Shown here: piece by piece, positions 5,337 to 43,239 of the stretch
Numbering within the stretch: position 1 is the first letter of the stretch
Layout: each line of letters opens with the position of its first letter
Assembly: GCA_947598345.1 (NCBI GenBank)
Contig: CANQFF010000001.1
Location: 1 to 43,511 of the forward strand
Source: an uncultured Bacilli bacterium
GTDB taxonomy: Bacteria; Bacillota_I; Bacilli_A; RF39; UBA660
Length of the DNA: 43,511 nucleotides
Direction of reading: 5' to 3'
The notes under the pieces: generated by a model
Database searches by the model: none
What the model was told of the DNA's origin: nothing
Seen by the model: only the letters and a program-made list of their open reading frames with translations
Position numbers and translations under genes: made by a program

Positions 5337-7037
5337 TTAGTCAGCTATATCTGTTATAACTATATGTGTTGTTAAAGTATCTTCTCCACCTTCAATAATA
5401 GAAAATTGGAATATTCCTGTTTGAGCTAAACCATCTTGATAGCCACCACGCCTTAACCAAGGACTTTTAGGAGTTAAAAATGTATAATAATCTTGATACC
5501 ATCCTACATTTTGATTAGTAGGAGATAAAGTTTCACTCATTGCATGTCCGTAGCATATCCCACCACAAGCTTCTAAGAAATTTTTGCTAGGATCAGTTGG
5601 AGCTATATATAAATCATAATATTTTGGATCTGGCATATCCTCACCAACATACATAGAACCATCAGCTAGCATTCCACTAAAACCAGAATTATTGTTCTCA
5701 GTCTCACCAGATCTTGGTAATCCATCTGTTCCTGAAAGTACTCCCATAACTGCGTCCCATCCAGCTCCACTTACATCATATACACCATATATATTACCAG
5801 TTGTAGATGCTCCACCGCCACAACTTCCAGTTCCACTTCCTCTATCAGCTATATCATCATAAGGGCATTGTGGATCATTTTTTTGTTCCTGTGTTGCACC
5901 ATTACTAGCTCCTGAAATAAAATCACTATCCATATTTATATAGATTTCTTTATTTTTATATGTATACATTGAATTTCCATACTTTCCGTATTTACTCTGA
6001 GATAAATACGCCATCGCACCCCAATCAGAATTTTTAGCTACATGTGAATCTGCATTACCAATATAATCACCAAATGTTTTAGATGAATTAAAAAGTTCAC
6101 TTATAATTCCAAACATAATTTCATTTCCAGGTAAAATAGTAGGTTCAGGTAAAGAACCTGTTGTATCAAATTTCCCAATCCAAAATCCACTTAATTCTTT
6201 TCCTCCAAAGGTAAATGATGGATGAGTTCTCCATCCACTAGGAGTATTACCCGTATAAGTTGCAGTTCCAAATTCCTTAACATTACTACTTACAAATTTT
6301 ATATCAATCCCACCTGGTTGCGCTATATTAGGAACAGTTGCGCTTGCTGCTCTAAATCCATAAGTATTACCTATTGTATATGAAAACCTAGGAATCCATA
6401 CAAACATAGCCTTTACTTCAGTTTCTAAATCTAAACTTTTTCCAACTTCATCGCTTACTCCATCTTCTAATATAGCTGCATTTGCCCACTCTTGTTTCGT
6501 ATAATCATACCATTTATTCTGTCTATCTGCTATATCCCACTCTTCGTTATCTTCATCGTATACTATTGGAACCATTTTTCTATACAATTTAGGATCCGCA
6601 CCATTTAATTCAGGTGCTTTATACGAATCAACATATATATATTCATCACAATCCTTGTTATCCTTTATAGTATAACTATAACCATCATTATAATCAGCCT
6701 GAACACTTTTTAAATCAGTATCATCTTCAGATTCATCTGATAAAATTATTGGTCCCTTTAAATATCCTTCATCCACTAAATCTCTTATCGAAATACAATA
6801 ACTATTACCATCTTTTTTTTCAAAATCATCTTTATTTTTTTGTAAAAAATCATCAGCCGCACTAAATACTAATCTTTCATTAAAACTATATATATCATTA
6901 TTTTTATCCTTTATAAAGTCGACAATATTAGGAAAAACTAACGCTATTATAGCACTAATAATTATAATAACACCTAAAAGTTCTACCAAAGTAAAGCCAG
7001 AAGTTTTATTAATTTTTTTTAACACAATTTTCCTCAT
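5337..7037 (-). CDS. Type IV pilin-like (prepilin-type N-terminal cleavage/methylation) protein with a large C-terminal domain
   Basis: The N-terminus MRKIVLKKINKTSG|FTLVELLGVIIIISAIIALVF has Gly-1, Phe+1 and Glu+5 followed by a hydrophobic helix. The rest is about 520 aa, with blocks reminiscent of an FGE-sulfatase/C-lectin-like fold. Confidence 0.85.
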   Translation of the reverse strand: MRKIVLKKINKTSGFTLVELLGVIIIISAIIALVFPNIVDFIKDKNNDIYSFNERLVFSAADDFLQKNKDDFEKKDGNSYCISIRDLVDEGYLKGPIILSDESEDDTDLKSVQADYNDGYSYTIKDNKDCDEYIYVDSYKAPELNGADPKLYRKMVPIVYDEDNEEWDIADRQNKWYDYTKQEWANAAILEDGVSDEVGKSLDLETEVKAMFVWIPRFSYTIGNTYGFRAASATVPNIAQPGGIDIKFVSSNVKEFGTATYTGNTPSGWRTHPSFTFGGKELSGFWIGKFDTTGSLPEPTILPGNEIMFGIISELFNSSKTFGDYIGNADSHVAKNSDWGAMAYLSQSKYGKYGNSMYTYKNKEIYINMDSDFISGASNGATQEQKNDPQCPYDDIADRGSGTGSCGGGASTTGNIYGVYDVSGAGWDAVMGVLSGTDGLPRSGETENNNSGFSGMLADGSMYVGEDMPDPKYYDLYIAPTDPSKNFLEACGGICYGHAMSETLSPTNQNVGWYQDYYTFLTPKSPWLRRGGYQDGLAQTGIFQFSIIEGGEDTLTTHIVITDIAD

Positions 7038-7422: not shown

Positions 7423-7440
7423 ATAAATCAAATTAGTATT
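7403..7440. terminator. Shared hairpin terminator of the convergent 96-aa ORF and sigma gene
   Basis: Perfect 10-bp stem AATACTAATT (7411-7420) / AATTAGTATT (7431-7440) that contains both stop codons. An A8 run at 7403-7410 gives a T8 tail on the minus strand. Confidence 0.6.
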
Positions 7441-8428
7441 TATATATAACATTTCTAATTTTTCTCATTGCTTTTTTTTCTAAATTATTAACTCTTGATA
7501 ATCCAACACCATGCTTAGTGATGTTTTGCTTAGTACTTATCTGTTCCAAAGTCAAAACATCATCTGATCCATAAGAACCAATTTTTTTACCAACCCTATC
7601 TAAAATAATTTTAAATTCAACATCAGTTAAACATTCTTTTATTACTTTCCACATATATTCATAATATATAGCATCATTAACTTTTTCTATTGAATCATCT
7701 AGAATACTGAAAAGATCTTTTAAGGAAATATTATTATCCTCAACATATACCCAATCTAAACTTAAATTTTTCCTATATGATTGTGATAAATAATCATCTG
7801 ATTCTTGTTCAAAATCATCATTATCCATATAAGTATTTGATGAATTGACTAACCTTTCCATTAATTCTTCTTTACTATTAAATGTATAACCTTTATTTTC
7901 TGATAAATTATTAAAATTATTTGAGTTACTTAAAAAAGTAACAATTCTTTTTCTAATCCACCAAGCAGCATATGTAGATAGTCTTGTACCTCTCTTTAAA
8001 TCAAACATATCTACAGCTCTTATCAACCCCTCATTACCTTCTTGAATAAGTTCAAAAAACTCAATATTATTAATTTTAGCTAAATCATAATATCTCTTAG
8101 CAATATGAACAACTAATCTTAAATTACAATTAACTAATGCCTCCCTAGCAAAATTATCACCATTTTTATAAGATGAAAACAACATTTTTTCTTGACTTGA
8201 ACTTAATAATGGATATTTAGATATATCACTAAAATAACTAGTATATATATATGGTAAAGGCGTTATATCATTACTTTCAACAGTACAATCATCTACTACC
8301 TCTATCCCTTTTTTAGAAAGATAACTAAGTACCCTATCGTATGTTTTAGAAGAATTAATACTATAAAGTGAGCTAACACTTATTTTATTATTTTCAGCTG
8401 ATTCTTCTAGCAATTTAAATATGTTCAT
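7433..8428 (-). CDS. Divergent sigma-70 family RNA polymerase sigma factor
   Basis: Region 2: NLRLVVHIAKRY ... LIQEGNEGLIRAVDMFD ... STYAAWWIRKRI. Region 4-like C-terminus: LTLEQIS ... LEKKAMRKIRN. Start set at ATG 8428 behind AAGGAAAG; the ORF-track TTG at 8485 lies inside the promoter. Confidence 0.85.
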   Translation of the reverse strand: MNIFKLLEESAENNKISVSSLYSINSSKTYDRVLSYLSKKGIEVVDDCTVESNDITPLPYIYTSYFSDISKYPLLSSSQEKMLFSSYKNGDNFAREALVNCNLRLVVHIAKRYYDLAKINNIEFFELIQEGNEGLIRAVDMFDLKRGTRLSTYAAWWIRKRIVTFLSNSNNFNNLSENKGYTFNSKEELMERLVNSSNTYMDNDDFEQESDDYLSQSYRKNLSLDWVYVEDNNISLKDLFSILDDSIEKVNDAIYYEYMWKVIKECLTDVEFKIILDRVGKKIGSYGSDDVLTLEQISTKQNITKHGVGLSRVNNLEKKAMRKIRNVIYKY

Positions 8429-8456
8429 AAAAACTTTCCTTTCTTTGATACATGAT

Positions 8457-8485
8457 ATTATATATGCAAGAAGATTTGTTGTCAA
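8457..8485 (-). promoter_or_regulatory. Perfect consensus sigma-A promoter upstream of the sigma factor gene
   Basis: On the minus strand: TTGACA (8480-8485), exactly 17 nt, TATAAT (8457-8462). Confidence 0.7.
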
Positions 8486-9640: not shown

Positions 9641-9713
9641 TATTATTTGAAAAAACTCTAATATAATATATATATTTTGATATTATTTATTCATAATAAT
9701 ATTGGTGAAATAT

Positions 9714-10253
9714 ATGTACTATATTAATTATTTTTTTATATTTTCTATTTTTGGACACTTTATAGAAAGCTTTTTCTATTCAAATGGCGAAAGCGGAATA
9801 TTATTTGGATATTGGACTCCAATATATGGAATTGGCACTATAATAATATTATTTATAAATAAAAATATTAATAAACTAAAATCAAATAAAATTATTAAAG
9901 TAATTCTATTATTCTTATCGTGTTCTATTATATTATCATTAATAGAATCAATAGGAGGTTATTTATTAAAGTGGATTTTTAATATTGAATTATGGAATTA
10001 CTCTAATCATAAATTTAATATTGGAGATTATACATCATTAGAAATGGCCTTAATATGGGGATTAAGTAGCTTATTATTAATATATTACCTAAAACCAATA
10101 GTAGATAAGATTATTAAAAAAATTCCAAAAATAATTACATTAATACTTGTAATATTATTTATTGTTGATATAGCAGCTACAATAACATTTAAAAAGAGTT
10201 TTAGTATCAGTTTATCAACCACTAGTCAAATATCTAACACGAAGATAAAATAA
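9714..10253 (+). CDS. Polytopic membrane protein, resembles the 'putative ABC-transporter type IV' (PF06541-like) family
   Basis: FIFSIFGHFIESFFY ... GILFGYWTPIYGIGTIII start pattern and 4-5 predicted TM helices. ATG at 9714 preferred over TTG at 9702. Confidence 0.6.
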   Translation: MYYINYFFIFSIFGHFIESFFYSNGESGILFGYWTPIYGIGTIIILFINKNINKLKSNKIIKVILLFLSCSIILSLIESIGGYLLKWIFNIELWNYSNHKFNIGDYTSLEMALIWGLSSLLLIYYLKPIVDKIIKKIPKIITLILVILFIVDIAATITFKKSFSISLSTTSQISNTKIK

Positions 10254-10270
10254 TATATGGAGGGAATAAC

Positions 10271-10525
10271 ATGAAAAACATTTCAAGAATAGACATGGAA
10301 AATGGTTTTTATCTATTTAAATTAAGAAATGTACTTTCTAATAAAAATATTAGTATAAATAAAATTATGAGGGAAACTAATACAGATTTCAAAGTTATAA
10401 AAAGACTTATGACTGGTGAATTACTAAAAATAGATATAATCGTTTTAGCTCGCATATGTAATTATTTAAACTGTAACATAGAAGACTTAATAGAATATAA
10501 ACAAACAAAAGCCATTTCCAACTAA
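10271..10525 (+). CDS. Small XRE/Cro-C1-type helix-turn-helix transcriptional regulator
   Basis: 84 aa. ISINKIMRETNTDFKVIKRLMTGE (HTH) followed by LARICNYLNCNIEDLIEY, typical of short Cro/C1 HTH proteins. GGAGGG ribosome-binding site. Confidence 0.75.
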   Translation: MKNISRIDMENGFYLFKLRNVLSNKNISINKIMRETNTDFKVIKRLMTGELLKIDIIVLARICNYLNCNIEDLIEYKQTKAISN

Positions 10526-10552
10526 AATAAGGGATAACCCTTATTTTTTTAT
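10525..10552 (+). terminator. Rho-independent terminator after the HTH gene
   Basis: AAATAAGGG / CCCTTATTT stem with ATAA loop, followed by a T-run. Confidence 0.7.
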
Positions 10553-10604: not shown

Positions 10605-10636
10605 AAAACAAAAAAGAGATAACTTTCGTTATCTCC
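10605..10636 (-). terminator. Rho-independent terminator closing the fibre locus
   Basis: The minus strand reads GGAGATAAC-GAAA-GTTATCTC followed by TTTTTTGTTTT, 19 nt after the stop at 10655. Confidence 0.8.
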
Positions 10637-10654: not shown

Positions 10655-13129
10655 TTAATTATAACCTATATCCGAACCTTTTACAGTAATTACTGGTCTT
10701 ACTCCAACTCCTGCAGTTACAAAATAAGGTAAACCACTTGTTATTGAAAGACCATCGTGGTAACTAACCAAAGTAGAAGGTGGAGTCGTATCAAGCACCC
10801 AATATGTCCCCCTCGCATATTCTCCTGAAATCACATCATACGCTGTAAATGGCAACCTAGCTTTCAATTCTAAATAAGAAGCTGTAACAGTACCTGTATC
10901 CTCGTTCAATATGTTAGTTTTAAGACCCATTTGAACCGCTGGCATACTGTAAGAATATGAGAATCCTCCTTTTGAATTTAAATAGTTTATAGAAAACTTT
11001 TGAGAAGGTATATTTGTCCAATCCTTTGTTGCACTATATAAATCATCATATGCTTTAATTGGACCATCTTTTATAGCACCACTGGCAGCAAAAGCAGTAC
11101 TTGCACCACCTAAACTACCATTTTTACTAATATTGTCCTCTAATATCAAATCTATGTCAGCATCATCCGTTATTTTAGATTTAGATACTACGAAGAAGTG
11201 ATATGATTTTGTATCATTTACCTTACATATAAATTCTTCCCCCATTGGGGCAACATTACCTTTAAATGGTACAAAACCTTTTAAAGCTCCGGAACTTGTT
11301 TTGCTTGCAGTTTCTTGTGTTACTGCTTGGCAAATATATGTTTTTGGTGCTGCTGGTTGTACTGGTATTGATTCAATTTCTCCATCAACATAACTAAGTA
11401 ATGTATCGACATCGTTACTATCAATAACACCGTCATCATATACATCAGCATATTCTGTTTTTATATTGAGTTCATATGCATCACTAGAAGATTGACTAGG
11501 ATTTTGTTTAATGAATTCAACATATTCACTTAAATCTTCTACATCCTGTTCATCAATTACTGTATCATTATTAACATCACCTAATTTTCCAGAAGCTTGT
11601 AATACTGCTTTTGGAAGCTCAACCATCAATCTTACAAAATTTGTATCAGTATTTGATACTGAATTAACATAATTCATTAAATAGTCTTTACCCGCACCTC
11701 CAGTAGGATCAGGAAGAGAATTTTCTATACTCTTTACTCCATAATAATATTTATCTTCATAATCCGGTATACCCGGTAAAATCCATCCTGGATATCCAAA
11801 TGAATTTGGGCACACTATATCATACTGGCTAACATTTCCAGTTATCCATTCTTCTTTTTCACAAATCTCCTCTACATCCTCATAATATGGTATGCGGGCC
11901 CTCATGTTTTTATAGGTTAATATTGCACTATTAGTCATTCCAATACGAATATCACCAGTATCACTTGTTGAAACAGTAAACATAGTTTTATCCAACTTTC
12001 GATTAATTTTAATCCTTGGAAATGTTGGCCATCCTTGCGTAATTTTATCTATAATGGTAAAAACATTATCAGGAACTGTAGTTGATAAATTTGCTCCATA
12101 TTTAACTGATTCACCAACAGACTCTCCTTTTGTCAAAGACCCATTGCTATTTACACCTGCAATTAAGTTCAAAGAAACTGTATCATCACTTATAGATGCC
12201 ACTCTAAAATTATATTTATTAAATCCATCAACAGTACATACATATTCGTCACCTAATTGTATCTTCCCATCTGGCAATGTTCCATAAGCATCATATTGAT
12301 ATACACTATTAACCTTGAAAGATTTTACTAAATCTTTCTTCGCAGCTGGTACACATAGTCTATTAATCTCTACATCATCAGTTATATTATCTATACTTAT
12401 TTGTGTTACAGTTCCTGGATAATAATTATTAGTATAATCAGTCCCAGGTGTTAATAATTTATTCCCCATAGTTACTACATAATAAGGCATATTGGGAAGT
12501 TTAGTAGTATTATAACTACCTCCATCCGCAACTTCTACATCATCAAGACCAATCCATGGGCCAAACTTAATTGTATGAAATTTTCTAAAATCAACAGTTA
12601 AAGATAGTGGAAAAGATACATTAGATGAACTAAAACTACTAGCATCCTTATATTGAATAGTCAATTTAAATGTTTTTTTAGCTCCTAATTTACAATTACC
12701 GGCAGTATCACATATTTTTGTCCCTAAAGTATAATCACTTACCGAATATTTCAAGTTGTCAGGTAATCCCTTAAAAGCATTTATACCCATGGCAACATTT
12801 CCAAAATTCTCAACTGTTATATCAAATACAACAGTAGAAGTTGCTGTAGGTAGCGTTATACCTAAATTTAAAAGCCTACTAGTATAATGTATATCAGTTG
12901 ATATACCACCTGTAGAAGATGATGATGTAACTACATTAGTTACTCTTATGTCTTGAAGCTCATCTACATAACCGACCATACCAGTTACTGTTAATTTTTT
13001 ACCTAGCGCAGCATAAGCCACTGTTAGAAGAAAAATTGAAATGGACAATATAGCACAAATAGAGTATATATTAATACTCTTTCGCACTTTTTCATTAAAA
13101 CTATTTAGCCATCTTTTTAGCTTTCTCAT
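10655..13129 (-). CDS. Large secreted adhesin-like protein: TasA-like N-domain, two repeated modules, internal dockerin
   Basis: Signal/anchor LLTVAYA|ALGKKLTVTG resembles that of the small subunits. Two dockerin-type Ca-binding repeats at aa 517-584. Two similar modules of roughly 230 aa. ATGA overlap with the upstream gene. Confidence 0.85.
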   Translation of the reverse strand: MRKLKRWLNSFNEKVRKSINIYSICAILSISIFLLTVAYAALGKKLTVTGMVGYVDELQDIRVTNVVTSSSSTGGISTDIHYTSRLLNLGITLPTATSTVVFDITVENFGNVAMGINAFKGLPDNLKYSVSDYTLGTKICDTAGNCKLGAKKTFKLTIQYKDASSFSSSNVSFPLSLTVDFRKFHTIKFGPWIGLDDVEVADGGSYNTTKLPNMPYYVVTMGNKLLTPGTDYTNNYYPGTVTQISIDNITDDVEINRLCVPAAKKDLVKSFKVNSVYQYDAYGTLPDGKIQLGDEYVCTVDGFNKYNFRVASISDDTVSLNLIAGVNSNGSLTKGESVGESVKYGANLSTTVPDNVFTIIDKITQGWPTFPRIKINRKLDKTMFTVSTSDTGDIRIGMTNSAILTYKNMRARIPYYEDVEEICEKEEWITGNVSQYDIVCPNSFGYPGWILPGIPDYEDKYYYGVKSIENSLPDPTGGAGKDYLMNYVNSVSNTDTNFVRLMVELPKAVLQASGKLGDVNNDTVIDEQDVEDLSEYVEFIKQNPSQSSSDAYELNIKTEYADVYDDGVIDSNDVDTLLSYVDGEIESIPVQPAAPKTYICQAVTQETASKTSSGALKGFVPFKGNVAPMGEEFICKVNDTKSYHFFVVSKSKITDDADIDLILEDNISKNGSLGGASTAFAASGAIKDGPIKAYDDLYSATKDWTNIPSQKFSINYLNSKGGFSYSYSMPAVQMGLKTNILNEDTGTVTASYLELKARLPFTAYDVISGEYARGTYWVLDTTPPSTLVSYHDGLSITSGLPYFVTAGVGVRPVITVKGSDIGYN

Positions 13130-14220
13130 TTTTTAGCCTCTATATCTACTGCCTTAACTACATATAAATAAACTTGATCATTTTGTCTAATATAGAAATA
13201 ACATTTTTGATGTTTAGTAACAGTATAATACATAATAGGTAATTTTAAGTTATCTCTTACATCCAATAATTCCTCTATTTTATTTATCTTAATAACATTT
13301 GCTTCACTTATCTTTGGATCAGTTGAAGTTTCAACTATCAATCTATCATACTCAGCTAAAATTTTATTAACATATTTATCATAAGCAGATTTTTTTGTTT
13401 TAATAGAAGCAATTAAACCAAATGCCTTAGACAATGATACTAAAGATATACCAAAGAATACCAAAGATAATGCCACAAATGGATAATTATCTAATTTTAA
13501 ATCAGATTGTCTTGTAACATAACTAGAATTATTTATTTCATTATAATTTAAGTTAATATTAATTGCTCTTTGTGATAGTGGTATAACAATAGACATATCA
13601 TTTCCATCATTTAAATATACAGAATCACCATTAGCAGCAGTTTTATTAATCCTCAAAATTACAGTTAAATTACTTGCAGTATCGATACCATAATCAGTTT
13701 TAAAACTATTTGCTAAATTATTATAATAATCATAATCTATCGAAATACTTTCATTTATAGAAAATTTCTCAGAATCTTGAAGAGTATTACTCTTAGTATC
13801 CATAAGTGTATATTCTTTTTCAAAATAAGTATCTACTCCATTTTCACTAGTAATAGTTAATCTTCCAATAATACTATAATTATAATCTAATTTAAGCTTA
13901 TCTTCGATACCAAAAGCATAATTAAAATCAATATCAATATTCTTAATTAAACTAGCTATATATGCCATATTCTTTCCAAGATAATCTGTTTCATAATATT
14001 CATTTGGTTTTAAATATACTTTATAATCTAAATAACTATTTTCTTCATATTTTGTGCTTGTTTCTTCTAAATAAGATATAGAATGTTTAAAAGAAAGAAG
14101 ACATAATAACAAAGATAGTACAAATATAGAACAACTTAACACCAAACGAGTTGAAAATCCAACATACTTAGTTTTTTTATTTTTCTTACTCTTTTCTCCC
14201 TTTTCCATCTTTTTGTTCAT
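13126..14220 (-). CDS. Two-TM membrane protein of unknown function (possibly DUF5305-like)
   Basis: TM at aa 25-45, then a roughly 210-aa external domain, a second TM (YPFVALSLVFFGISLVSL), and a roughly 95-aa cytoplasmic tail. Translationally coupled to the adhesin gene. Confidence 0.8.
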   Translation of the reverse strand: MNKKMEKGEKSKKNKKTKYVGFSTRLVLSCSIFVLSLLLCLLSFKHSISYLEETSTKYEENSYLDYKVYLKPNEYYETDYLGKNMAYIASLIKNIDIDFNYAFGIEDKLKLDYNYSIIGRLTITSENGVDTYFEKEYTLMDTKSNTLQDSEKFSINESISIDYDYYNNLANSFKTDYGIDTASNLTVILRINKTAANGDSVYLNDGNDMSIVIPLSQRAININLNYNEINNSSYVTRQSDLKLDNYPFVALSLVFFGISLVSLSKAFGLIASIKTKKSAYDKYVNKILAEYDRLIVETSTDPKISEANVIKINKIEELLDVRDNLKLPIMYYTVTKHQKCYFYIRQNDQVYLYVVKAVDIEAKK

Positions 14221-14235
14221 TTTTCATTTTCCCTC

Positions 14236-15363
14236 CTATACTTCTTTTAACCACACAGTTGGTAACCCTATATACGGAATTTTAACACTTATAGTTCCAA
14301 CAATCATATCTTGTGTTACTGGATAGCCATCTTCTGCATTATTAGCATCCCCTTGTGTGTATAAAAAATACTCTCCTTTAACTTCAGATATTCTAATTAT
14401 ACGGTGTACAATCAAAACTCCATGATATTCGAATGCAATAATCTGACCTTCCTTTAACTTATCAACATTATTGTCAAACTTTTCTATAATAACTACATCA
14501 CCTTTATTAATAGTTGGAACCATACTTCCTGTTGCAATAGCAACTGCTTGATATTTAAAATATCCAGAAGTAAAATATACAAGAACTATTATAACAAATG
14601 CCGGTAATGCAAGTATTAAATAATCTTTTTTTGAATAATCCCTAGGAGTATATTCATCTTTTTCTTTTTGGAAATAACCATGTAGCTTATATAACAATAT
14701 AAATGGCACAATAAATTGAATTATTGATGAAAGATACTCGTTTGGATTAGGTACTATTGGTACCAAATATTGATATAATTCCATCACTAATAAATACAAT
14801 ATTGTTGGTTTATATCCGCTATTAATAGAAATGTAAGTACATAAAATATTAGTACTTATGGCTGGTAGTAATGTAAGTGCAACAAATATAAAAGACTCAT
14901 AACTATCAGCAAATTTATTATAATATATTGGATCAGATACATCCAAAAATATAAATAACAAAACTGTAATAAATATTAGAAACTTCTTACCTTCTGATTT
15001 TTTTAGCATCATATATCTTAAGCATTCTTTTAAAGGAATACTAAGCGCAATAGGTATTATAAATGTCTTAAATCCGCCAAATGTATAATAATTACTTGTC
15101 CTTGCAAATCCTATAAAAATACCTAAAAAATAATAAGCTAACAAAAAGAAAATCAAAAACATAGAAACTTCAAATATTACATCTTTAACAAATCTATTTC
15201 TATCCTTCTCAAATCCTAACAAAAATTTAAATAATACCAACATCGCAACCGAAAATATTATTATATTATATTCGCTTAATATATTTGATATAAAACTATT
15301 TAGTATAAGGATAGCAAACATCACACATTGAAATAAAACCAACCTCTTATAACTCTTTTTCAT
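14236..15363 (-). CDS. SipW-like (ER/archaeal-type S26) signal peptidase I fused to an N-terminal 8-TM domain
   Basis: The C-terminal ~110 aa carry GSMVPTINKGD (Ser), VHRII (His) and GDANNAEDG (Asp). They are preceded by roughly 250 aa of hydrophobic helices. Confidence 0.85.
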   Translation of the reverse strand: MKKSYKRLVLFQCVMFAILILNSFISNILSEYNIIIFSVAMLVLFKFLLGFEKDRNRFVKDVIFEVSMFLIFFLLAYYFLGIFIGFARTSNYYTFGGFKTFIIPIALSIPLKECLRYMMLKKSEGKKFLIFITVLLFIFLDVSDPIYYNKFADSYESFIFVALTLLPAISTNILCTYISINSGYKPTILYLLVMELYQYLVPIVPNPNEYLSSIIQFIVPFILLYKLHGYFQKEKDEYTPRDYSKKDYLILALPAFVIIVLVYFTSGYFKYQAVAIATGSMVPTINKGDVVIIEKFDNNVDKLKEGQIIAFEYHGVLIVHRIIRISEVKGEYFLYTQGDANNAEDGYPVTQDMIVGTISVKIPYIGLPTVWLKEV

Positions 15364-15393
15364 GTCTCCTCCTAAATAATTTTATTAAAACAT

Positions 15394-15426
15394 ATTAAGT
15401 ATAAAGCATATGCATTATAACTTAAT
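15394..15426 (-). terminator. AT-rich imperfect hairpin between the last subunit gene and the peptidase gene (possible attenuating terminator)
   Basis: ATTAAGT (15394-15400) pairs with ACTTAAT (15420-15426) around a GCATATGC palindrome. The T-run is weak. Confidence 0.3.
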
Positions 15427-15435
15427 ATAATTTTT

Positions 15436-16074
15436 TTAATCTGCTGAACCGTAAGTCAATGTTGTTGCAGGTATTGTTACATCAAATGCACCGTCAGCTC
15501 TAGCTGAACCAGTTTTGTATTCGATTTTAATTGTAACTTTTTCAGTACCAGCTTTAGCTAAAGTATGACTTGTTATTGCAGAATTTGATACAGAACTTGC
15601 ACTTTTTGAAGTTGCAGAGTCTTTTCCAACTGTGAATGTTGCTTCTATACCTGCACAAGCTGCTGTAACTAAGGCGTCAGTTGCTTGAGATGATGTAGCT
15701 TTCTTACAAGTTAAATCACTAGTAGTAATTGCATTCAAATAAGCTATATATTCACCAGTATTTTTTACTTGAGCAGTACATGTTACTGAGTCACCTGGGT
15801 CAGTAAATGCTACCTTAATACCAGAAATCGTTGTATCAGCTACTGTTCCTGTTTCTGTAACTGATGCATTTCCTACTGTTGTATCACATTCTATTCCCTC
15901 AGTTTCATAAGTTGTATCAAATACAACTTTGAAGGCATCTCCACTTGGTGTTACTGTTGCATTTGCAGAAATTGTAAGTGTACTTGTGAAGGCTGCAAAA
16001 CCTATTCCTAATCCTACTACTGCAACAATTAACGCTACAACTGCTATTACTTTTGAATTTCTATCTCTTCCCAT
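15436..16074 (-). CDS. TasA/camelysin-like secreted fibre subunit, paralog C (212 aa)
   Basis: Signal ...GLGIGFA|AFTSTLTISANATVTP. The block PGDSVTCTAQVKNTGEY resembles TasA KPGDKLTKDFQFENNGSL. AGGTGG ribosome-binding site. Confidence 0.85.
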   Translation of the reverse strand: MGRDRNSKVIAVVALIVAVVGLGIGFAAFTSTLTISANATVTPSGDAFKVVFDTTYETEGIECDTTVGNASVTETGTVADTTISGIKVAFTDPGDSVTCTAQVKNTGEYIAYLNAITTSDLTCKKATSSQATDALVTAACAGIEATFTVGKDSATSKSASSVSNSAITSHTLAKAGTEKVTIKIEYKTGSARADGAFDVTIPATTLTYGSAD

Positions 16075-16134
16075 TTGTTCACCACCTAACTAAAATATTG
16101 ATTTTATTTATATAATCTAAATTATATATGAATA

Positions 16135-16779
16135 TTAACTTGCTGAATCTGCTGAACTATATGATAATGATGTTTGTGGTATTGTTACATCAAATGCACC
16201 ATCAGCTTGTTGTGATCCTGATTTATATTCAATTTTAATTGTAACTGTCTCTGAAGTACTTTTTGATAAAGTATGACCTTTTATACTAGATTTTGACTCT
16301 GAAGCTGAACTTTTTGAAGTTGCTGAATCACTACCAACTGTAAATGTTGCTTCTATACCTTTACAAGCCTCATTAACTAAACCTTCAGTTGCTTGAGACT
16401 CTGAAGCTTTCTGGCAAGATAAATTACCAGTAGTAATTGAATTCAAATATGCTTCGTATTCTCCGCTATTTTTTACTTGAGCAGTACATGTTACTGAATC
16501 ACCTGGTTTAGTAAATGCTACTTTAATACCAGTAATTGTTGTATCATCAACTGTTCCTGAACTTGAAACAGATGCACTTCCTGATGGGCTACAAGTTATA
16601 CCACTTGTTTCATATTCCTTATCAAATACTACTTTAAATGTATCATCACTTGGTGTTACTGTTGCACTTGATGAAATGGTAAGTGTGCTTGTGAAGGCTG
16701 CGAAACCTATTCCCAATCCTGCCACTGCAACAATTAATGCTAGTATTGCAATTACTTTTGAATTTTTTTCGTTTTCCAC
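16135..16779 (-). CDS. TasA/camelysin-like secreted fibre subunit, paralog B (214 aa)
   Basis: Roughly 70% identical by eye to paralog C. GTG start at 16777-16779 behind GAGGAGGTG. Confidence 0.85.
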   Translation of the reverse strand: MENEKNSKVIAILALIVAVAGLGIGFAAFTSTLTISSSATVTPSDDTFKVVFDKEYETSGITCSPSGSASVSSSGTVDDTTITGIKVAFTKPGDSVTCTAQVKNSGEYEAYLNSITTGNLSCQKASESQATEGLVNEACKGIEATFTVGSDSATSKSSASESKSSIKGHTLSKSTSETVTIKIEYKSGSQQADGAFDVTIPQTSLSYSSADSAS

Positions 16780-17012
16780 AATCTCACCTCCTCACCATTT
16801 AGCATACCACCGTTTTAACACTATTATAGATAATACCCTATCTTTTTACTCGTATGCTATACAATAAGATTATCTCACATCAAAATTTAAAAATCAATAC
16901 TTTAAGACGAATTTTTTATTTTAATGTTAATTTTTATTTTAAATTAATTTATACTACTAAAAACTGTGCAAATAAAAAGAAAATAAATTAATTAATATTT
17001 TCTCTTAATATT

Positions 17013-17693
17013 TTAAGTAGCAGAAGTAAAGTTAAAATTGATATCTCCAAATTCTACTTTAAATGGTCCATCTGCAAGATCATTACCCGTATATTGAAAA
17101 CCTATTTCAACAGTTCTATAATGACCTTTTGGTATTACTATTGATACAGCGTTGTTTGTTTTTGTCGTTGTCCAAATTACAGGCATATCACTATTATAAG
17201 TACGAGTTGTTACTATGACACTAATATTAGAACAAACTTTTTGTACTAATGAATCAGTTGTTCCAGCAAGTGCTGTACAAACTATAGGGCTAGATTTTCC
17301 TTTTACATTTTCATATACAACAGAAGCTAAAGTGGCATCGTATTGACCAGCATTTACAACATAAAAACTATATGCATCTGATTTTGTTTCAGGACCTGTA
17401 AAATACCAAGTTATTCCTGAAACAGTTGTTTCTGTTAAAGTCGCAGTAGTCCCTTTATTTGCATAATCTGGATTTCCTCCACCTGGTTGAACTGTACCTG
17501 TAGTAATTGAATCAGATTCTGTTGAAAATCCTACTTTGAAATTACTTTCATCTGGAGTTACTGTAGCATTTGCTGAAATAGTCAAAGTATTAGAAAAGGC
17601 TGCATAAGCGACAGATATAGCTACGACACAAAACGCTATTGTGCTCAAAAATATTACTTTTTGATTTTTATTTCTCCTTCTTGTTCGTCTCAT
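17013..17693 (-). CDS. TasA/camelysin-like secreted fibre subunit, paralog A (226 aa, divergent)
   Basis: Signal ...AISVAYA|AFSNTLTISANATVTP. Same overall layout as B and C, but the core is diverged. Confidence 0.85.
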   Translation of the reverse strand: MRRTRRRNKNQKVIFLSTIAFCVVAISVAYAAFSNTLTISANATVTPDESNFKVGFSTESDSITTGTVQPGGGNPDYANKGTTATLTETTVSGITWYFTGPETKSDAYSFYVVNAGQYDATLASVVYENVKGKSSPIVCTALAGTTDSLVQKVCSNISVIVTTRTYNSDMPVIWTTTKTNNAVSIVIPKGHYRTVEIGFQYTGNDLADGPFKVEFGDINFNFTSAT

Positions 17694-17738
17694 TTTTTCA
17701 CCCTCACTTTGTAGACTACTGTCTACACTACTACTTAC

Positions 17739-17767
17739 ATTTTACATCAATAAATAAAATAATACAA
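17739..17767 (-). promoter_or_regulatory. Candidate promoter of the fibre locus
   Basis: On the minus strand: TTGTAT (17762-17767), 17 nt, TAAAAT (17739-17744). The 16-nt palindrome GTAGACTACTGTCTAC (17711-17726) lies just downstream. Confidence 0.35.
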
Positions 17768-21080: not shown

Positions 21081-22406
21081 TTATTTTACTAAATTATTAC
21101 TTCTAATAGCTTGATCTGGAAACATTTCATTTATTGATTTAACACTTAAATCGCTGTTTATTTTTTCTGTATTAAAATAGTATCTTCCTACCATGTAACC
21201 ATATTCGTTATATATATCTTTATCATCACGAATATTTTTAGAATTTATATTTTCATATAGTCTAGCAACTATACTATTAAAATCTTTTGAATTAGATTCT
21301 ACATCTTCTGGTCTACTTTTTAAATAAAATATTAATTCATTATAATCTTCTTCATTTAGATTATTTTTTAATATACTTACTAAGTTAGTATCATCACCAC
21401 TAAATACAGTTTCCCATATTACTTTAGGACCAATAGTATTCATAAGTAACTCAAGATTTATTAAAGCAGGTATATATGAACCAAAAGGCTTATCTAAATA
21501 CTCATTTGCAGCAAGTTCTGCAACTGCTTCTTTCAAAAATGGATAACTTTTATCTGGAGATTGTAATAAATGTATAAACTCATGCTTTAATATTTCCTCG
21601 TACCCACCTATATTTTTTGCATTTATTACATTAGGAGCTATATCATTATAAAAACCATCTGTTGTTTGTGGATTTGGAATAAAAATCTCAGTTGGATCAT
21701 AAAGTCTTATTTTTATATTTTTTAATTTATATTTAATAAGATATTCCATATCGGTACCTTTATAATATTGAAATACATCTTCTAACAAATTTTCATTAGC
21801 AAAAATACTTTTCATATCATCTGGTAATTGTGAGGAATTTATTAAATTTATTCCTTCACTAACATCTATACAGTTTAAGTCTAAATTTAAATATTCTGAA
21901 ATAGAATATACTGGTTTAGCTAATGAATATTGTATATTATTTGTAAAATTTCCTTTAGTAAGTTGTGCACTAATTTCTGAAAAAATTACAAAATAACTCG
22001 TAATTGTAAGTAAAATTCCAAGAGAAATTTTTAAAATTTTTTTACCAATATGAAATTCTTTACTTTCACTATCTTTTTCTGATTTCTTACTGTAAAGTAT
22101 TAAATCTTCACCATTATTTTTAAAAAACATTGTAAAATCTTCAATATTGTTTTTTAAGTAATGTTTTAAATTATTTTTGTTATCCAAATATACTTTAAAA
22201 TCTAAATAATCTCCTATGTATGTACAATCACTATTAACTTTAACTAAATTATAGATAACATCAACTATATTTTTACCTATTGGATATAAATTATTCTCTT
22301 TTACACAAAAACCATAATAAATTAAATTATTATCCTGTTTTTTAAAATATAAATAATTACTCTCTTCTTTATCTTTTAAAATTGCACCTAACATAATATC
22401 ACTCAC
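21081..22406 (-). CDS. Membrane-anchored hypothetical protein with an HExxH zinc-protease-like motif
   Basis: One central TM (ILKISLGILLTITSYFVIFSEI). External domain contains HEFIHLLQ ... EAVAELAANEY. The GTG at 22406 overlaps the pth stop; the ATG at 22394 is an alternative start. Confidence 0.75.
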   Translation of the reverse strand: MSDIMLGAILKDKEESNYLYFKKQDNNLIYYGFCVKENNLYPIGKNIVDVIYNLVKVNSDCTYIGDYLDFKVYLDNKNNLKHYLKNNIEDFTMFFKNNGEDLILYSKKSEKDSESKEFHIGKKILKISLGILLTITSYFVIFSEISAQLTKGNFTNNIQYSLAKPVYSISEYLNLDLNCIDVSEGINLINSSQLPDDMKSIFANENLLEDVFQYYKGTDMEYLIKYKLKNIKIRLYDPTEIFIPNPQTTDGFYNDIAPNVINAKNIGGYEEILKHEFIHLLQSPDKSYPFLKEAVAELAANEYLDKPFGSYIPALINLELLMNTIGPKVIWETVFSGDDTNLVSILKNNLNEEDYNELIFYLKSRPEDVESNSKDFNSIVARLYENINSKNIRDDKDIYNEYGYMVGRYYFNTEKINSDLSVKSINEMFPDQAIRSNNLVK

Positions 22407-36629: not shown

Positions 36630-37751
36630 TTAATATGTTCTTATCGGTAAAATTAATTGTGTTAAATCATCGTTATCCACATAGTTAACAATTATTGGTT
36701 TAATTTCTCCGTTAAATGATAATTCTATTTCTTCACTATCGAATGTCTTAATAGCATCCATCATATATTTTGAACTAAAAGATATTTTTATTTCAATATC
36801 AACATTTTTTGTTATTTTAATTTTTTCCTCTACATTACCTATTTCAGGAATATTAGAAGATATAATCATAATATCTTTTTTTGTTTCTAATTTAATAGTA
36901 TTTTTTTCTTCAGAATTTGTTAATAAAGATGCCCTATCAATTGCATTATAGAAATTTTCTAAATTAACTTTAACCTTTAATTCAAAATTATCTGGTATTA
37001 ATTTATTAGTATCTGGATAATTACCATTTATAAGTCTTGTCATAATAATTAGATTATCTATTTTAAATATTACCTTATTTGAAAATATATGTAATTCCAT
37101 TTTTTTATCTTCATCTGATATTAATTTAATTATTTCACTTAAATTCCTACTTGGAATAATAATATCAATATTGTTATCAACATTATTATCTAATAGTATT
37201 CTTTTTTTAGATAATCTATATGAATCAGTAGCTGTTACTTCCATTATATTATCGTTTATTTTAAAATTAATACCTGTTAAAACTGGTCTACTTTCTTGTT
37301 GAGATGTTGCAAAAATAGTTTGATTTATTGTAGTTTTAAAAACTCTTTGATCAAATATTAGTGGATTACCAGTAAATTCTAAATCAATTGCTGGAAAATC
37401 ACTAACACTATTACAATTTAATTTAAAAGATGATGATTCAGTTGTTATAAGAACTTGTGAATCAATTATTTCTTCTATATTAATAACTTCATTTGTTAAT
37501 TTTCTAACTATATCATATATATATCTTCCAGAAATTACAATCTCACCTAATTCATCTATAGAATCTATTTGATTTTCTGGAATAAAAGATTTTATAGCTA
37601 ATTCATTATCTGTACTTAATAAATATAATCCCTCTTTTGTTAATTCAAATTTTATACAATTTAAAATAGGGATTAAATTCTTTGTTGATATACCTCTTAT
37701 TACAAAATTTAAATGTTCTAATAAAACTTTTTGCTTTATTGTTAATTTCAT
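36630..37751 (-). CDS. dnaN: DNA polymerase III beta sliding clamp
   Basis: 373 aa, three-domain clamp. MKLTIKQKVLLEHLNFVIRGIS... dnaA-dnaN synteny. Confidence 0.96.
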   Translation of the reverse strand: MKLTIKQKVLLEHLNFVIRGISTKNLIPILNCIKFELTKEGLYLLSTDNELAIKSFIPENQIDSIDELGEIVISGRYIYDIVRKLTNEVINIEEIIDSQVLITTESSSFKLNCNSVSDFPAIDLEFTGNPLIFDQRVFKTTINQTIFATSQQESRPVLTGINFKINDNIMEVTATDSYRLSKKRILLDNNVDNNIDIIIPSRNLSEIIKLISDEDKKMELHIFSNKVIFKIDNLIIMTRLINGNYPDTNKLIPDNFELKVKVNLENFYNAIDRASLLTNSEEKNTIKLETKKDIMIISSNIPEIGNVEEKIKITKNVDIEIKISFSSKYMMDAIKTFDSEEIELSFNGEIKPIIVNYVDNDDLTQLILPIRTY

Positions 37752-39888: not shown

Positions 39889-40239
39889 ATGAAAAAAATT
39901 CATATATTAAAAAATAGTCGAGATTTTGATAGAATAATCAAGAGTAATAAACCATATAAATATAAAGATTATATAATATATTTGGAAAGAAATACCAATG
40001 ATTTATATAAATTTGGATTATCAGTAGGTAAAAAATTAGGAAATGCGGTTAATAGAAACAAAATTAAAAGGCAATTAAAATCTATAATTGATAAAAAAGA
40101 CTATCAAAATAACTTCAATTGTATTATAATAGTTGGTAAGGGAATTAATGAAAAAAAATTTAAAGAAAGAGAAGATAATTTATTATTCGCATTAAATCAA
40201 CTTGAATTAATAAAGGAGAATAGAAATGAACAAAAATAA
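39889..40239 (+). CDS. rnpA: Ribonuclease P protein component
   Basis: 116 aa, basic. The LKNSRDFDRI start and KAVNRNKIKRQLK block are RnpA-like. rpmH-rnpA synteny. Confidence 0.92.
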   Translation: MKKIHILKNSRDFDRIIKSNKPYKYKDYIIYLERNTNDLYKFGLSVGKKLGNAVNRNKIKRQLKSIIDKKDYQNNFNCIIIVGKGINEKKFKEREDNLLFALNQLELIKENRNEQK

Positions 40240-41889: not shown

Positions 41890-43239
41890 ATGAATGATAC
41901 AATAGCTGCAATTTCAACTACTCTTGGTGTAGGCGCCATATCTATAATTAGAGTAAGTGGTAATGATGCAATTAAAATAGTAAGTAAAATATTTAAAGGT
42001 AAAGATTTAGAAAAAGTAAAGTCTCATACCATTAATTATGGATATATTGTAGATAACGATACTTATATAGATGAGGTATTAGTAAGTGTTATGAGAGCCC
42101 CTAAAACATTTACGGTAGAAGATGTAGTAGAAATAAATACACACGGGGGTATTGCAATTACAAATAAAGTATTAGAATTATTACTTTTAAATGGATGTAG
42201 GTTAGCAGAACCTGGTGAGTTTACTAAAAGAGCATTTTTAAATGGTAGAATAGATCTAATAGAGGCAGAAGGGGTTATGGATTTAATAAATGCTAAAACA
42301 GAAAAGTCTAGGAAAATTGCAATGAATGAAGTAAACGGCGAAGTATCTAAACTTATTAAAGATTTAAGAGAAAAAATAATAGAAATACTTGCTAATATAG
42401 AAGTTAATATAGATTACCCAGAATATGAAGATATAGAAGAGGTAACTAATAAAAATATTTTAGATAGTGTAGATTTAATAGAAGATGAAATAAATAATAT
42501 TTTAAGTAAATCAGAAGATATGAAAATAGTAAAAGAAGGTATTAAAACTATTATAATAGGTAGTCCTAATGTAGGTAAAAGTAGTATATTAAATAGATTA
42601 CTTAATGAAGAAAAAGCAATAGTAACTGATATAGCAGGAACTACCCGTGATATAGTTGAAGGTAGTGTTCAAATAGATGGAATAATACTTAATATATTAG
42701 ATACTGCAGGTATTAGAAAAACTAGCGATATAGTAGAAAGTATAGGTGTTAAAAAAAGCTTGGATTTAATAGATGAAGCAGACTTAATACTTTATGTACT
42801 TAATAATAATGAAAATATAACAGAAGAAGAACAAGAAATACTTGATAAAATAAAAAATAAAAATCATATAATTATTGTAAACAAAATAGACTTAGATAAA
42901 AAAATAGATTTAAAGTTACTTGATAATTATGTAGAGATGTCTATTAAAGATGATATAGGTGTAGATAATTTAAGAAATAAAATAAAAGAGATGTTTAATT
43001 TAGAAAAAATTAATACAAGTGATTTTACTTATCTTAGTAGTGCGAGAAGCATTTCTCTTTTAAAAAAATGTTTGAATTCACTTGAAGATGTAAAAAAAGG
43101 CATAAATGAAAATATGCCAGTTGATATGGTAGAAATAGATTTAAAAAATGTATGGAATACTTTAGGTGAGATAATAGGAGAAACTTATACAGATGAACTT
43201 ATAGACCAATTGTTTAGTCAGTTTTGTTTAGGAAAATAA
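41890..43239 (+). CDS. mnmE: tRNA modification GTPase MnmE
   Basis: N-terminus DTIAAISTTLGVGAISIIRVSG. G-domain motifs GSPNVGKSS, DTAGIR and NKIDL. C-terminal CLGK. Confidence 0.96.
   Translation: MNDTIAAISTTLGVGAISIIRVSGNDAIKIVSKIFKGKDLEKVKSHTINYGYIVDNDTYIDEVLVSVMRAPKTFTVEDVVEINTHGGIAITNKVLELLLLNGCRLAEPGEFTKRAFLNGRIDLIEAEGVMDLINAKTEKSRKIAMNEVNGEVSKLIKDLREKIIEILANIEVNIDYPEYEDIEEVTNKNILDSVDLIEDEINNILSKSEDMKIVKEGIKTIIIGSPNVGKSSILNRLLNEEKAIVTDIAGTTRDIVEGSVQIDGIILNILDTAGIRKTSDIVESIGVKKSLDLIDEADLILYVLNNNENITEEEQEILDKIKNKNHIIIVNKIDLDKKIDLKLLDNYVEMSIKDDIGVDNLRNKIKEMFNLEKINTSDFTYLSSARSISLLKKCLNSLEDVKKGINENMPVDMVEIDLKNVWNTLGEIIGETYTDELIDQLFSQFCLGK

Follow-up and report, generated by a model that had tools for sequence, protein, structure and literature searches.

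Introduction

Processing of fiber subunits by a dedicated signal peptidase has been shown experimentally for two pairs only, SipW/TasA and TafD/TafA. A locus type with major and minor subunits, a tip protein, a polytopic type I signal peptidase (SPase I) and a DUF5305 protein has been described for Tafi (2025; PMC11821415, PMC12337348) and for AbpX (preprint 2026; bioRxiv 10.64898/2026.01.04.697558). In Haloarcula, deletion of the TafD signal peptidase blocks processing of the TafA pilin and abolishes the filaments, and strand donation is seen in the Natrinema Tafi structure (PMC11821415, PMC12337348). Here we analyzed a 43,511-nucleotide stretch of DNA (hereafter the window; contig CANQFF010000001.1 of assembly GCA_947598345.1) from an uncultured Bacilli bacterium of the RF39 lineage. 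It carries six minus-strand genes downstream of mfd (Table 1), which encode three small secreted proteins (S1, S2 and S3), an SPase I, a DUF5305 protein with two transmembrane (TM) segments and a large secreted protein of 824 aa. All six open reading frames (ORFs) listed in an initial annotation of this DNA are present.

The locus has the same parts as the AbpX loci of Pyrodictium abyssi and of archaeal and Bacillota/Chloroflexota homologs (PDB 9SJ2, 9RHP), including a polytopic SPase I of ~380 aa there. Both possess subunit-like minor components, a predicted tip protein, a DUF5305 accessory protein, acidic mature subunits with a cysteine pair, and homologous peptidase catalytic domains. Similar to the haloarchaeal Tafi system (TafA/TafE pilins, TafD peptidase, TafG DUF5305 protein and TafC tip), it combines several candidate pilins, a multi-TM SPase I, a DUF5305 protein and a variable two-domain protein of the tip type, with conserved enzymatic and variable structural parts. 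The tapA-sipW-tasA operon of Bacillus subtilis (PDB 8AUR; PMC9674648) shares with it a dedicated signal peptidase of the endoplasmic reticulum (ER)/archaeal type, cleavage to an A-F... N-terminus in the same register, a jelly-roll subunit (predicted here) with a common PGD...N-x-G hairpin motif, and chaperone-free donor-strand assembly, which for the present locus is a proposal only. In chaperone-usher pili (Fim, Pap), too, the following subunit lends its N-terminal strand to an incomplete β-sandwich, as proposed here, and the tip adhesin joins a pilin domain to a binding domain; however, the present locus has no periplasmic chaperone or usher and its host no outer membrane, and the link is one of analogy only.

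In the initial annotation, the arrangement was called non-canonical and uncharacterized. This view is out of date: the Tafi and AbpX loci have been described with the same parts list (PMC11821415, PMC12337348, bioRxiv 10.64898/2026.01.04.697558), so the composition is canonical for a recently described class. The architecture of the system is already known, and what is new is the subunit family. On balance, we favor the reading that the operon encodes a cleavage-activated donor-strand surface fiber of the TasA/AbpX/Tafi kind, with S1 as the core subunit, S2 and S3 as additional subunits, and the large protein as an adhesin-bearing tip or decoration.

A conserved N-terminal strand in a new subunit family

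The four secreted proteins had been noted to share one pattern of signal peptide and mature N-terminus, and this likeness proved to be far beyond chance. Cleavage (arrow) is predicted at VAYA↓AFSNTLTISANATVTP in S1, GFA↓AFTSTLTISSSATVTP in S2, GFA↓AFTSTLTISANATVTP in S3 and VAYA↓ALGKKLTVTG in the signal peptide-bearing 824-aa protein. In the subunit family, the site obeys the -3/-1 rule and is preceded by a basic n-region and a conserved hydrophobic helix; the consensus of 89 members reads L-[SGT]-[IL]-G-F-A↓A-F-[ST]-x-x-L-x-I-x-S-S-A-x-V-x-P. S2 and S3 are 71-72% identical to each other, and S1 shares 32-34% identity with them outside the N-terminal strand. Between S1 and S3, 14 of the first 16 mature residues (88%) are identical, compared to 32% over the remainder. 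Within these 16 residues, the conserved hydrophobic positions L6, I8, A12 and V14 alternate with variable polar ones, as expected of a β-strand with one buried face. At mature position 2, 85 of the 89 sequences have F or Y, and position 4 is N, S, T or A. S1 is probably the core subunit, since the S1 type is the single subunit gene in most related loci (phmmer E ~1e-34), and we take S2 and S3 to be a lineage-specific duplicated pair.

The hydrophobic h-region is itself unusually well conserved (KVIAxVALxVAVVGL) and is predicted as a long, confident helix, which would also suit an uncleaved signal-anchor. The small proteins would then form a membrane-tethered coat, and the peptidase would process only a subset of the secreted proteins, for example the large one. 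In Tafi loci, some subunit-like proteins do keep a single TM helix and have been proposed to act as membrane anchors, and the present locus holds no other anchor. Nevertheless, all four proteins have a small-x-small site (G-F-A or A-Y-A) in the register of the proven sites of TasA (W-A↓A-F) and AbpX (Y-A↓Q-W), and a dedicated peptidase with intact catalytic residues is co-conserved with the subunits. We regard a tethered coat as quite improbable.

The mature subunits have an isoelectric point (pI) of 4.5-4.6 and contain 9-11% Asp plus Glu; mature S3 (pI 4.5) is acidic and Ser/Thr-rich, with two conserved cysteines and a predicted β-sandwich. AlphaFold2 models of S3, with a predicted local distance difference test score (pLDDT) of 91.2 with the signal peptide and of 91.8 without it (predicted TM-score, pTM, of 0.85), consist of a β-sandwich with one helix, whereas the first ~20 mature residues stay unstructured (block pLDDT of 48 and 68). 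The most conserved segment thus lies outside the monomer fold, which is the behavior expected of a donor strand, though not a proof of it. The mature-only model showed no self-complementation, and its Foldseek ranking was barely altered.

The best Foldseek matches of these models are carbohydrate-binding modules (CBMs) and phage receptor-binding or tail-fiber domains, not pilins, and one subgroup of relatives comes near the Pfam CBM_2 threshold (23.2 vs 24 bits). Together with the acidic, Ser/Thr-rich composition and with homology to TasA and AbpX that is not established beyond the N-terminus, this would fit ordinary monomeric secreted or surface proteins, such as glycan-binding jelly-rolls, which use a dedicated peptidase for their release and build no fiber. 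However, an SPase needs only positions -3 and -1 and little past +1, and yet conservation in these proteins is highest over the first 16 mature residues, which show alternating hydrophobicity and no structure in the monomer model. Moreover, the 824-aa protein has the same strand and a subunit-like domain, which is sensible for co-assembly, and all characterized systems that combine a DUF5305 protein with a dedicated SPase I make donor-strand filaments. A purely monomeric role is the main alternative to a fiber, though in our estimation an unlikely one.

S1, S2 and S3 belong to a divergent and very numerous family that has not been described and that the databases do not yet recognize: neither Pfam nor NCBIfam has a model that matches it, and the source gives it no annotation. 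When 1.84 billion cluster representatives were searched exhaustively with HMMER, 5,601 matched at E <= 1e-3, 704 of them at E <= 1e-30, and the family thus comprises at least 5,601 clusters at 50% identity. Among PDB sequences, nothing relevant was found with phmmer of S3 or with hmmsearch of the family profile, and no plasmid sequence matched S1 in tblastn.

The signal peptidase and the DUF5305 protein

The peptidase is an archaeal/ER-type SPase I, as the initial annotation held: TIGR02228 matches with 83.3 bits against a cut-off of 51.85, and Pfam Peptidase_S26 also matches. The fusion claimed for it is likewise present, in the form of an extra polytopic N-terminal domain. Hydropathy places ~8 hydrophobic segments in residues 1-245, followed by the S26 catalytic domain in residues 250-375. 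Ser280, His320, Asp339 and Asp345 are conserved across 43 homologs, in the Ser/His/Asp arrangement typical of SipW/SEC11-type enzymes. The same homologs also agree in many polar residues and prolines of the polytopic domain, which suggests that the domain is more than an anchor.

The gene next after abpX in P. abyssi codes for an S26 protein of 380 aa, which has the same domain order as the present enzyme and nearly its length (375 aa). Its catalytic domain shares 34% identity with the one here (E 1e-17; hhalign 99.6%). A tblastn search of plasmids with the peptidase gave matches through the catalytic domain only, which led to TasA-like loci. One of these, on an Arthrobacter alpinus plasmid (locus L065, 7845-10307), has a SipW-type peptidase domain fused to an 820-aa "Ig-like domain-containing protein" beside a TasA-like gene, another peptidase fusion architecture in TasA-type loci.

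DUF5305, the family against which the 2-TM protein was to be checked, matches it well above the cut-off (PF17231, 59.8 bits vs 29). According to hydropathy, the protein has a first TM segment (~26-44), an external domain of ~200 aa, a second TM segment (~253-271) and a cytoplasmic tail of ~90 aa. By homology it is a putative accessory subunit of the signal peptidase, since the same role has been proposed for TafG and for the DUF5305 proteins of AbpX loci. The papers found to mention DUF5305 all concern this kind of system (PMC11821415, PMC12337348, bioRxiv 10.64898/2026.01.04.697558).

A large protein with a subunit-like N-terminal domain and exchangeable C-termini

The 824-aa protein starts with a subunit-like domain (residues ~41-190), and its conservation reaches to residue ~250. 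The small-subunit profile aligned with an alignment of this N-terminal region and its homologs at an hhalign probability of 96% (E 4.8e-9); the aligned region extends from the signal peptide across the cleavage site and the strand into the sandwich, of which it covers the first half with a shared V-x-V-x-N-x-G hairpin. This homology bears out the earlier proposal that the large protein is itself a subunit.

By contrast, the C-terminal region is lineage-specific. Its dockerin-type calcium-binding module at residues 516-580 (Dockerin_1, 26.1 bits vs 22.9) is the sole above-threshold domain of the protein, whereas the homologs share only the first ~250 residues and end in LRR/DUF285, Flg_new or DUF6273 modules instead. 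Only 4 partial relatives of this protein came out of a homolog search, and against the PDB there were weak dockerin matches only. A shared N-terminal domain with swapped C-termini is what one would expect if the protein were an adhesin that tips or decorates a fiber and whose binding domains can be exchanged.

In one related locus (L001), the N-terminal domain of the large protein is a separate 183-aa gene that is followed by a gene for a 772-aa DUF6273 protein. The same locus carries an insertion sequence element with a DDE_Tnp_1 transposase (L001 10933-12660) between two of its three small-subunit paralogs.

The neighborhood is conserved in uncultured gut Bacilli

A neighborhood scan with an 18-sequence alignment, over one genome per GTDB species, yielded 54 loci. 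All come from uncultured metagenome-assembled genomes (MAGs) of human (Hadza), rabbit, ruminant, horse and chicken guts, labeled as Bacilli, Mycoplasma sp., Tenericutes, Erysipelotrichaceae or Candidatus Faecisoma (Mycoplasmatota incertae sedis). The SPase is adjacent to the subunit gene(s) in 38 loci, and a DUF5305 gene is present in 39; in 36 of the 54, one or more small genes are directly followed by a 374-395-aa peptidase and a DUF5305 protein, in agreement with the co-conservation looked for in the initial annotation. A homolog of the N-terminal domain of the large protein is also present in 21 loci, and a locus has between one and six subunit copies. Of the 18 exceptions, roughly half are truncated by a contig end or have a frameshifted peptidase; the others are orphan subunit clusters. 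A literature search found no link between such uncultured gut lineages and pili of this type.

The orphan clusters L035, L041, L046, L048 and L029 are arrays of up to six paralogs, with one 512-aa fused form, and have no peptidase or DUF5305 gene within 5-10 kb. In one group of relatives (L004 1-9900 and L005), the fiber locus lies directly downstream of an F1-like ATPase cluster. This cluster comprises a c-subunit, two alpha/beta-type subunits, a gamma subunit and unannotated genes, and recalls the accessory F1-like ATPases of mycoplasmas.

Relation to the TasA superfamily

By eye, the site G-F-A↓A-F resembles T-W-A↓A-F of TasA, and, starting at the cleavage site, the AbpX donor strand QWSETLSLSATIS (Q-W-S-E-T-L-S-L-S-A-T-I-S) and the subunit strand AFTSTLTISANAT (A-F-T-S-T-L-T-I-S-A-N-A-T) are in register. 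The subunits' N-terminal strand aligns in this way with the donor strands of both TasA and AbpX. For profile comparison, a nine-sequence TasA-like profile was built from B. subtilis TasA (sequence checked against 8AUR) and from loci beside SipW-type peptidases of Bacillus, Acetoanaerobium, Euzebya, Arthrobacter and Halobellus. As a positive control, it detects AbpX at 94.9%; the literature assigns membership of the TasA superfamily at HHsearch probabilities of 80-95%. Against a merged TasA and AbpX profile, the subunit family reached 93% in hhalign (E 3.2e-7), with the cleavage sites in register and the PGD...N-x-G hairpin correctly spaced. This match is carried mainly by the signal peptide, the cleavage site and the N-terminal strand, and ten controls with shuffled mature columns gave E ~1.5e-3 against the same profile. 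Compared to five AbpX homologs, the family scored 64% (E 6.5e-5) over 173 collinear columns, the AbpX profile being thin because the homolog search had yielded 5 close relatives only; a metagenome scan with the AbpX alignment found none. To Peptidase_M73, 8 of 72 relatives have no more than weak, sub-threshold matches (~15 bits, best E 0.0067), over 27 residues (profile positions 53-79) that cover a PGD...N-x-G hairpin only.

Several results weigh against a fiber of the TasA/AbpX/Tafi kind. S1, S2 and S3 have no match to Peptidase_M73 (PF12389; cut-off 22.5 bits) at E <= 1, and an NCBIfam scan of the subunits at E <= 1, including any SipW-signal model in the library, gave nothing above noise. 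The SipW-signal model TIGR04088 matched none of the six proteins, although its presence in the NCBIfam release scanned is unconfirmed. The TasA-only profile scored 6% against the subunit family in hhalign. With the signal peptides removed, the AbpX comparison fell to 2.6% (range across comparisons 2.6-12%), with E of 0.0025-0.017 and coverage of the PGD...N-x-G hairpin or the C-terminal half only. The acidic residue at mature position 4 of AbpX and TasA is absent from the family. In Foldseek searches of the PDB with the two S3 models, the TasA fiber 8AUR came at rank 14 (E 0.023, TM-score 0.31) and rank 10 (E 0.0076, probability 0.85, TM-score 0.33), a weak match ranked behind phage tail-fiber, CBM and MAM jelly-rolls. 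The AbpX, AbpA and thread structures were outside the top 50, with the presence of 9SJ2 and 9RHP in the library unconfirmed. Moreover, the N-terminal polytopic domain of the SPase, with its ~8 hydrophobic segments, cannot be aligned with that of the P. abyssi enzyme, where AbpX-locus SPases have about 10 TM segments, and the locus offers no recognizable cell-wall or membrane anchor.

The predicted jelly-roll of the subunits therefore resembles TasA weakly. Judged from the profiles, the family is probably a very divergent branch of the TasA superfamily or a neighbor to it, a relation that is not demonstrated for the core domain. The TasA/SipW-type label of the initial annotation was right in kind but named the wrong family: membership of Peptidase_M73/TasA-camelysin failed in Pfam for S1-S3, with relatives sub-threshold, the Foldseek resemblance was weak, and a SipW signal of the TIGR04088 type found no NCBIfam support above noise.

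Differences from the described systems

Although AbpX loci have the same parts list, HMMER does not connect AbpX with the present subunits, for which PDB sequences also offer no match, and the profile similarity of the two is borderline. AbpX is more acidic (pI ~4.0 and ~15% Asp plus Glu) and combines an aromatic mature position 2 with the acidic position 4, the signature of its calcium-dependent assembly; because the acidic residue is missing and the acidity is lower, calcium-triggered assembly is doubtful here. Compared to AbpX loci, the locus lacks an LPXTG or SLH anchor, a sortase, a kinase and cyclic di-GMP genes, and its hosts are genome-reduced gut Bacilli.

SipW of the TasA operon is a protein of ~190 aa without a polytopic domain; that operon has neither DUF5305 nor a large tip subunit, whereas the present one lacks TapA. 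Tafi pilins use Tat signals, whereas S2, S3 and the large protein have Sec-type signals with Lys/Arg n-regions and no S/T-R-R-x-F-L-K motif; the n-region of S1 is Arg-rich (RRTRRR) yet has no F-L-K. TafD consists of 4 TM segments and an N-terminal catalytic domain, whereas here the catalytic domain is C-terminal, and no sequence similarity to Tafi subunits was found.

Layout of the locus and genomic context

Each of the six genes is preceded by a Shine-Dalgarno-like sequence. The intergenic gaps from S1 to the large gene are 233, 60, 72, 15 and -4 nt, the last three genes being tightly packed. Of the two signals said to bound the operon, the strong terminator is supported by a consensus scan, with its stem followed by a T tract, whereas the candidate promoter is weak and was not called. 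In this AT-rich DNA (27% GC), promoter-like sites occur at background frequency (53 found vs 51 expected from shuffles), which makes the candidate unverifiable. Between this candidate and the ribosome-binding site of S1, a perfect inverted repeat might serve as an operator or form a small hairpin in the 5' untranslated region. The S1-S2 gap is unusually long and, as a whole, without significant structure (RNA fold, z = -1.5); more speculatively, the AU-rich hairpin at its start might act as a partial terminator that raises S1 over the downstream genes and so sets the subunit ratios.

Table 1. Features of the candidate fiber locus and of its surroundings in the window
Feature	Position	Strand	Basis and remarks
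S1	17013-17693	minus	ORF, 226 aa, secreted subunit
S2	16135-16779	minus	ORF, 214 aa, GTG start, secreted subunit paralog
S3	15436-16074	minus	ORF, 212 aa, secreted subunit paralog
Dedicated signal peptidase I	14236-15363	minus	ORF, 375 aa
2-TM DUF5305 protein	13126-14220	minus	ORF, 364 aa
Large tip/adhesin-type protein	10655-13129	minus	ORF, 824 aa
Intrinsic terminator closing the operon	10605-10636	minus	consensus scan; 9-bp stem 10636-10615, then T tract
Candidate sigma-70 promoter TTGTAT-17-TAAAAT	17739-17767	minus	by eye; 8 nt downstream of the mfd stop (17775)
Perfect 6-bp inverted repeat GTAGAC-N4-GTCTAC	17711-17726	minus	between candidate promoter and S1 ribosome-binding site
AU-rich hairpin and U tract	16968-17006	minus	RNA fold; just past the S1 stop, in the S1-S2 gap
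CmpB-like membrane protein	9702-10253	plus	between fiber locus and rpsF
HTH_26 (Cro/C1-type) small regulator	10271-10525	plus	between fiber locus and rpsF
dnaN	36630-37751	minus	oriC neighborhood
dnaA	37881-39233	minus	oriC neighborhood
rnpA	39889-40239	plus	oriC neighborhood
mnmE	41890-43239	plus	oriC neighborhood

The locus had been described as inserted between mfd and rpsF. It does lie downstream of mfd, but two unrelated plus-strand genes stand before rpsF, and the marks of a mobile insertion are absent: no integrase, repeat or tRNA signs were found, and insertion as a mobile element was rejected. A related genome also carries its own version of the locus, with six subunit paralogs, directly after mfd. 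The two plus-strand genes, CmpB-like and HTH_26, converge on the operon end and have their own terminator (10524-10547); as neither is a conserved neighbor in relatives, both were ruled out as members of the system.

The window covers the neighborhood of the replication origin (oriC) of a low-GC bacterium, with dnaA, dnaN, gyrB/A-sized ORFs, rnpA and mnmE, and the S10 ribosomal operon occupies its left end. GC skew and gene orientation both switch at ~39-40 kb; the fiber locus is on the leading strand, at a distance of ~22 kb from oriC.

A 566-aa protein with a textbook type IV prepilin N-terminus (KTSG↓FTLVELLGVIIIISAIIALVF) and a large C-terminal domain is encoded on the minus strand (5337-7037), with the S10 ribosomal operon on one side and a sigma-70-like gene (7433-8485) on the other. 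Its Pfam N_methyl score of 20.1 bits is just below the 21.2 cut-off. The protein could be a second, unrelated surface-filament component. A prepilin elsewhere in the window is also the one observation that would speak for the six-gene locus as a type IV pilus-like or sortase-assembled pilus. However, a G↓F-x-x-x-E prepilin motif, a C-terminal anchor and a [LIVS]PxTG-like motif are missing from all six proteins, and the operon encodes no prepilin peptidase, assembly ATPase or sortase. On these sequence grounds, a type IV or sortase pilus is refuted for these six genes, and we give it next to no credence. In addition, a 441-aa minus-strand ORF between pth and mfd (21081-22406) has no Pfam match, one hydrophobic segment and an HEFIH motif resembling a zinc-metalloprotease site.

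Discussion

A donor-strand fiber made by this operon would assemble as follows. S1, S2, S3 and the 824-aa protein, to judge from the n-, h- and c-regions of their N-terminal signal peptides, would be exported by Sec. The operon's own SPase I would, by homology, cut after G-F-A or A-Y-A, probably with the DUF5305 protein as accessory. Cleavage would free A-F-(S/T)-x-T-L-T-I-S-x-x-A-T-V-T-P, an amphipathic β-strand without a place in the monomer fold, which most likely enters the β-sandwich of a neighbor and links the subunits head to tail without a chaperone. The 824-aa protein would join through its subunit-like N-terminal domain and display the variable C-terminal binding modules as a tip or decoration. 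The sequence analysis shows the gene identities, the conserved cleavage site and strand, the homology of the N-terminal domain of the large protein and the co-conservation of the genes, whereas cleavage by this peptidase, the role of the DUF5305 protein, strand insertion, filament polarity, anchoring and function are all points that we infer. The role of such a fiber is likely adhesion or matrix formation in the gut.

A bolder proposal, to which we give tentative and clearly less than even credit, is that the subunits form an unrecognized, very large donor-strand pilin family that occurs almost exclusively in gut Bacilli that are uncultured and genome-reduced (RF39-like, "Mycoplasma sp. CAG" and Ca. 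Faecisoma-type MAGs). The fiber would then be their main adhesive organelle, with calcium-free assembly and interchangeable tips (dockerin, LRR, Flg_new or DUF6273), and the 8-TM domain of the peptidase would serve together with DUF5305 as a membrane assembly platform, a role suggested by the conserved polar residues of that domain. If true, the platform would couple signal-peptide cleavage directly to strand insertion, as a functional equivalent of the usher. The role of a polytopic peptidase domain and of DUF5305 is a question common to Tafi and AbpX, and the present locus offers a compact system for asking it.

The locus belongs to an ecologically important group of lineages that abound in the guts of humans and animals, have small genomes and are so far without a cultured member. 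An operon near oriC that is unannotated, looks highly expressed and has swappable tips is a concrete candidate for their attachment to hosts, mucus or other microbes. Such a fiber would also extend the TasA-type principle of "cut, then strand-insert" to a new and numerous protein family.

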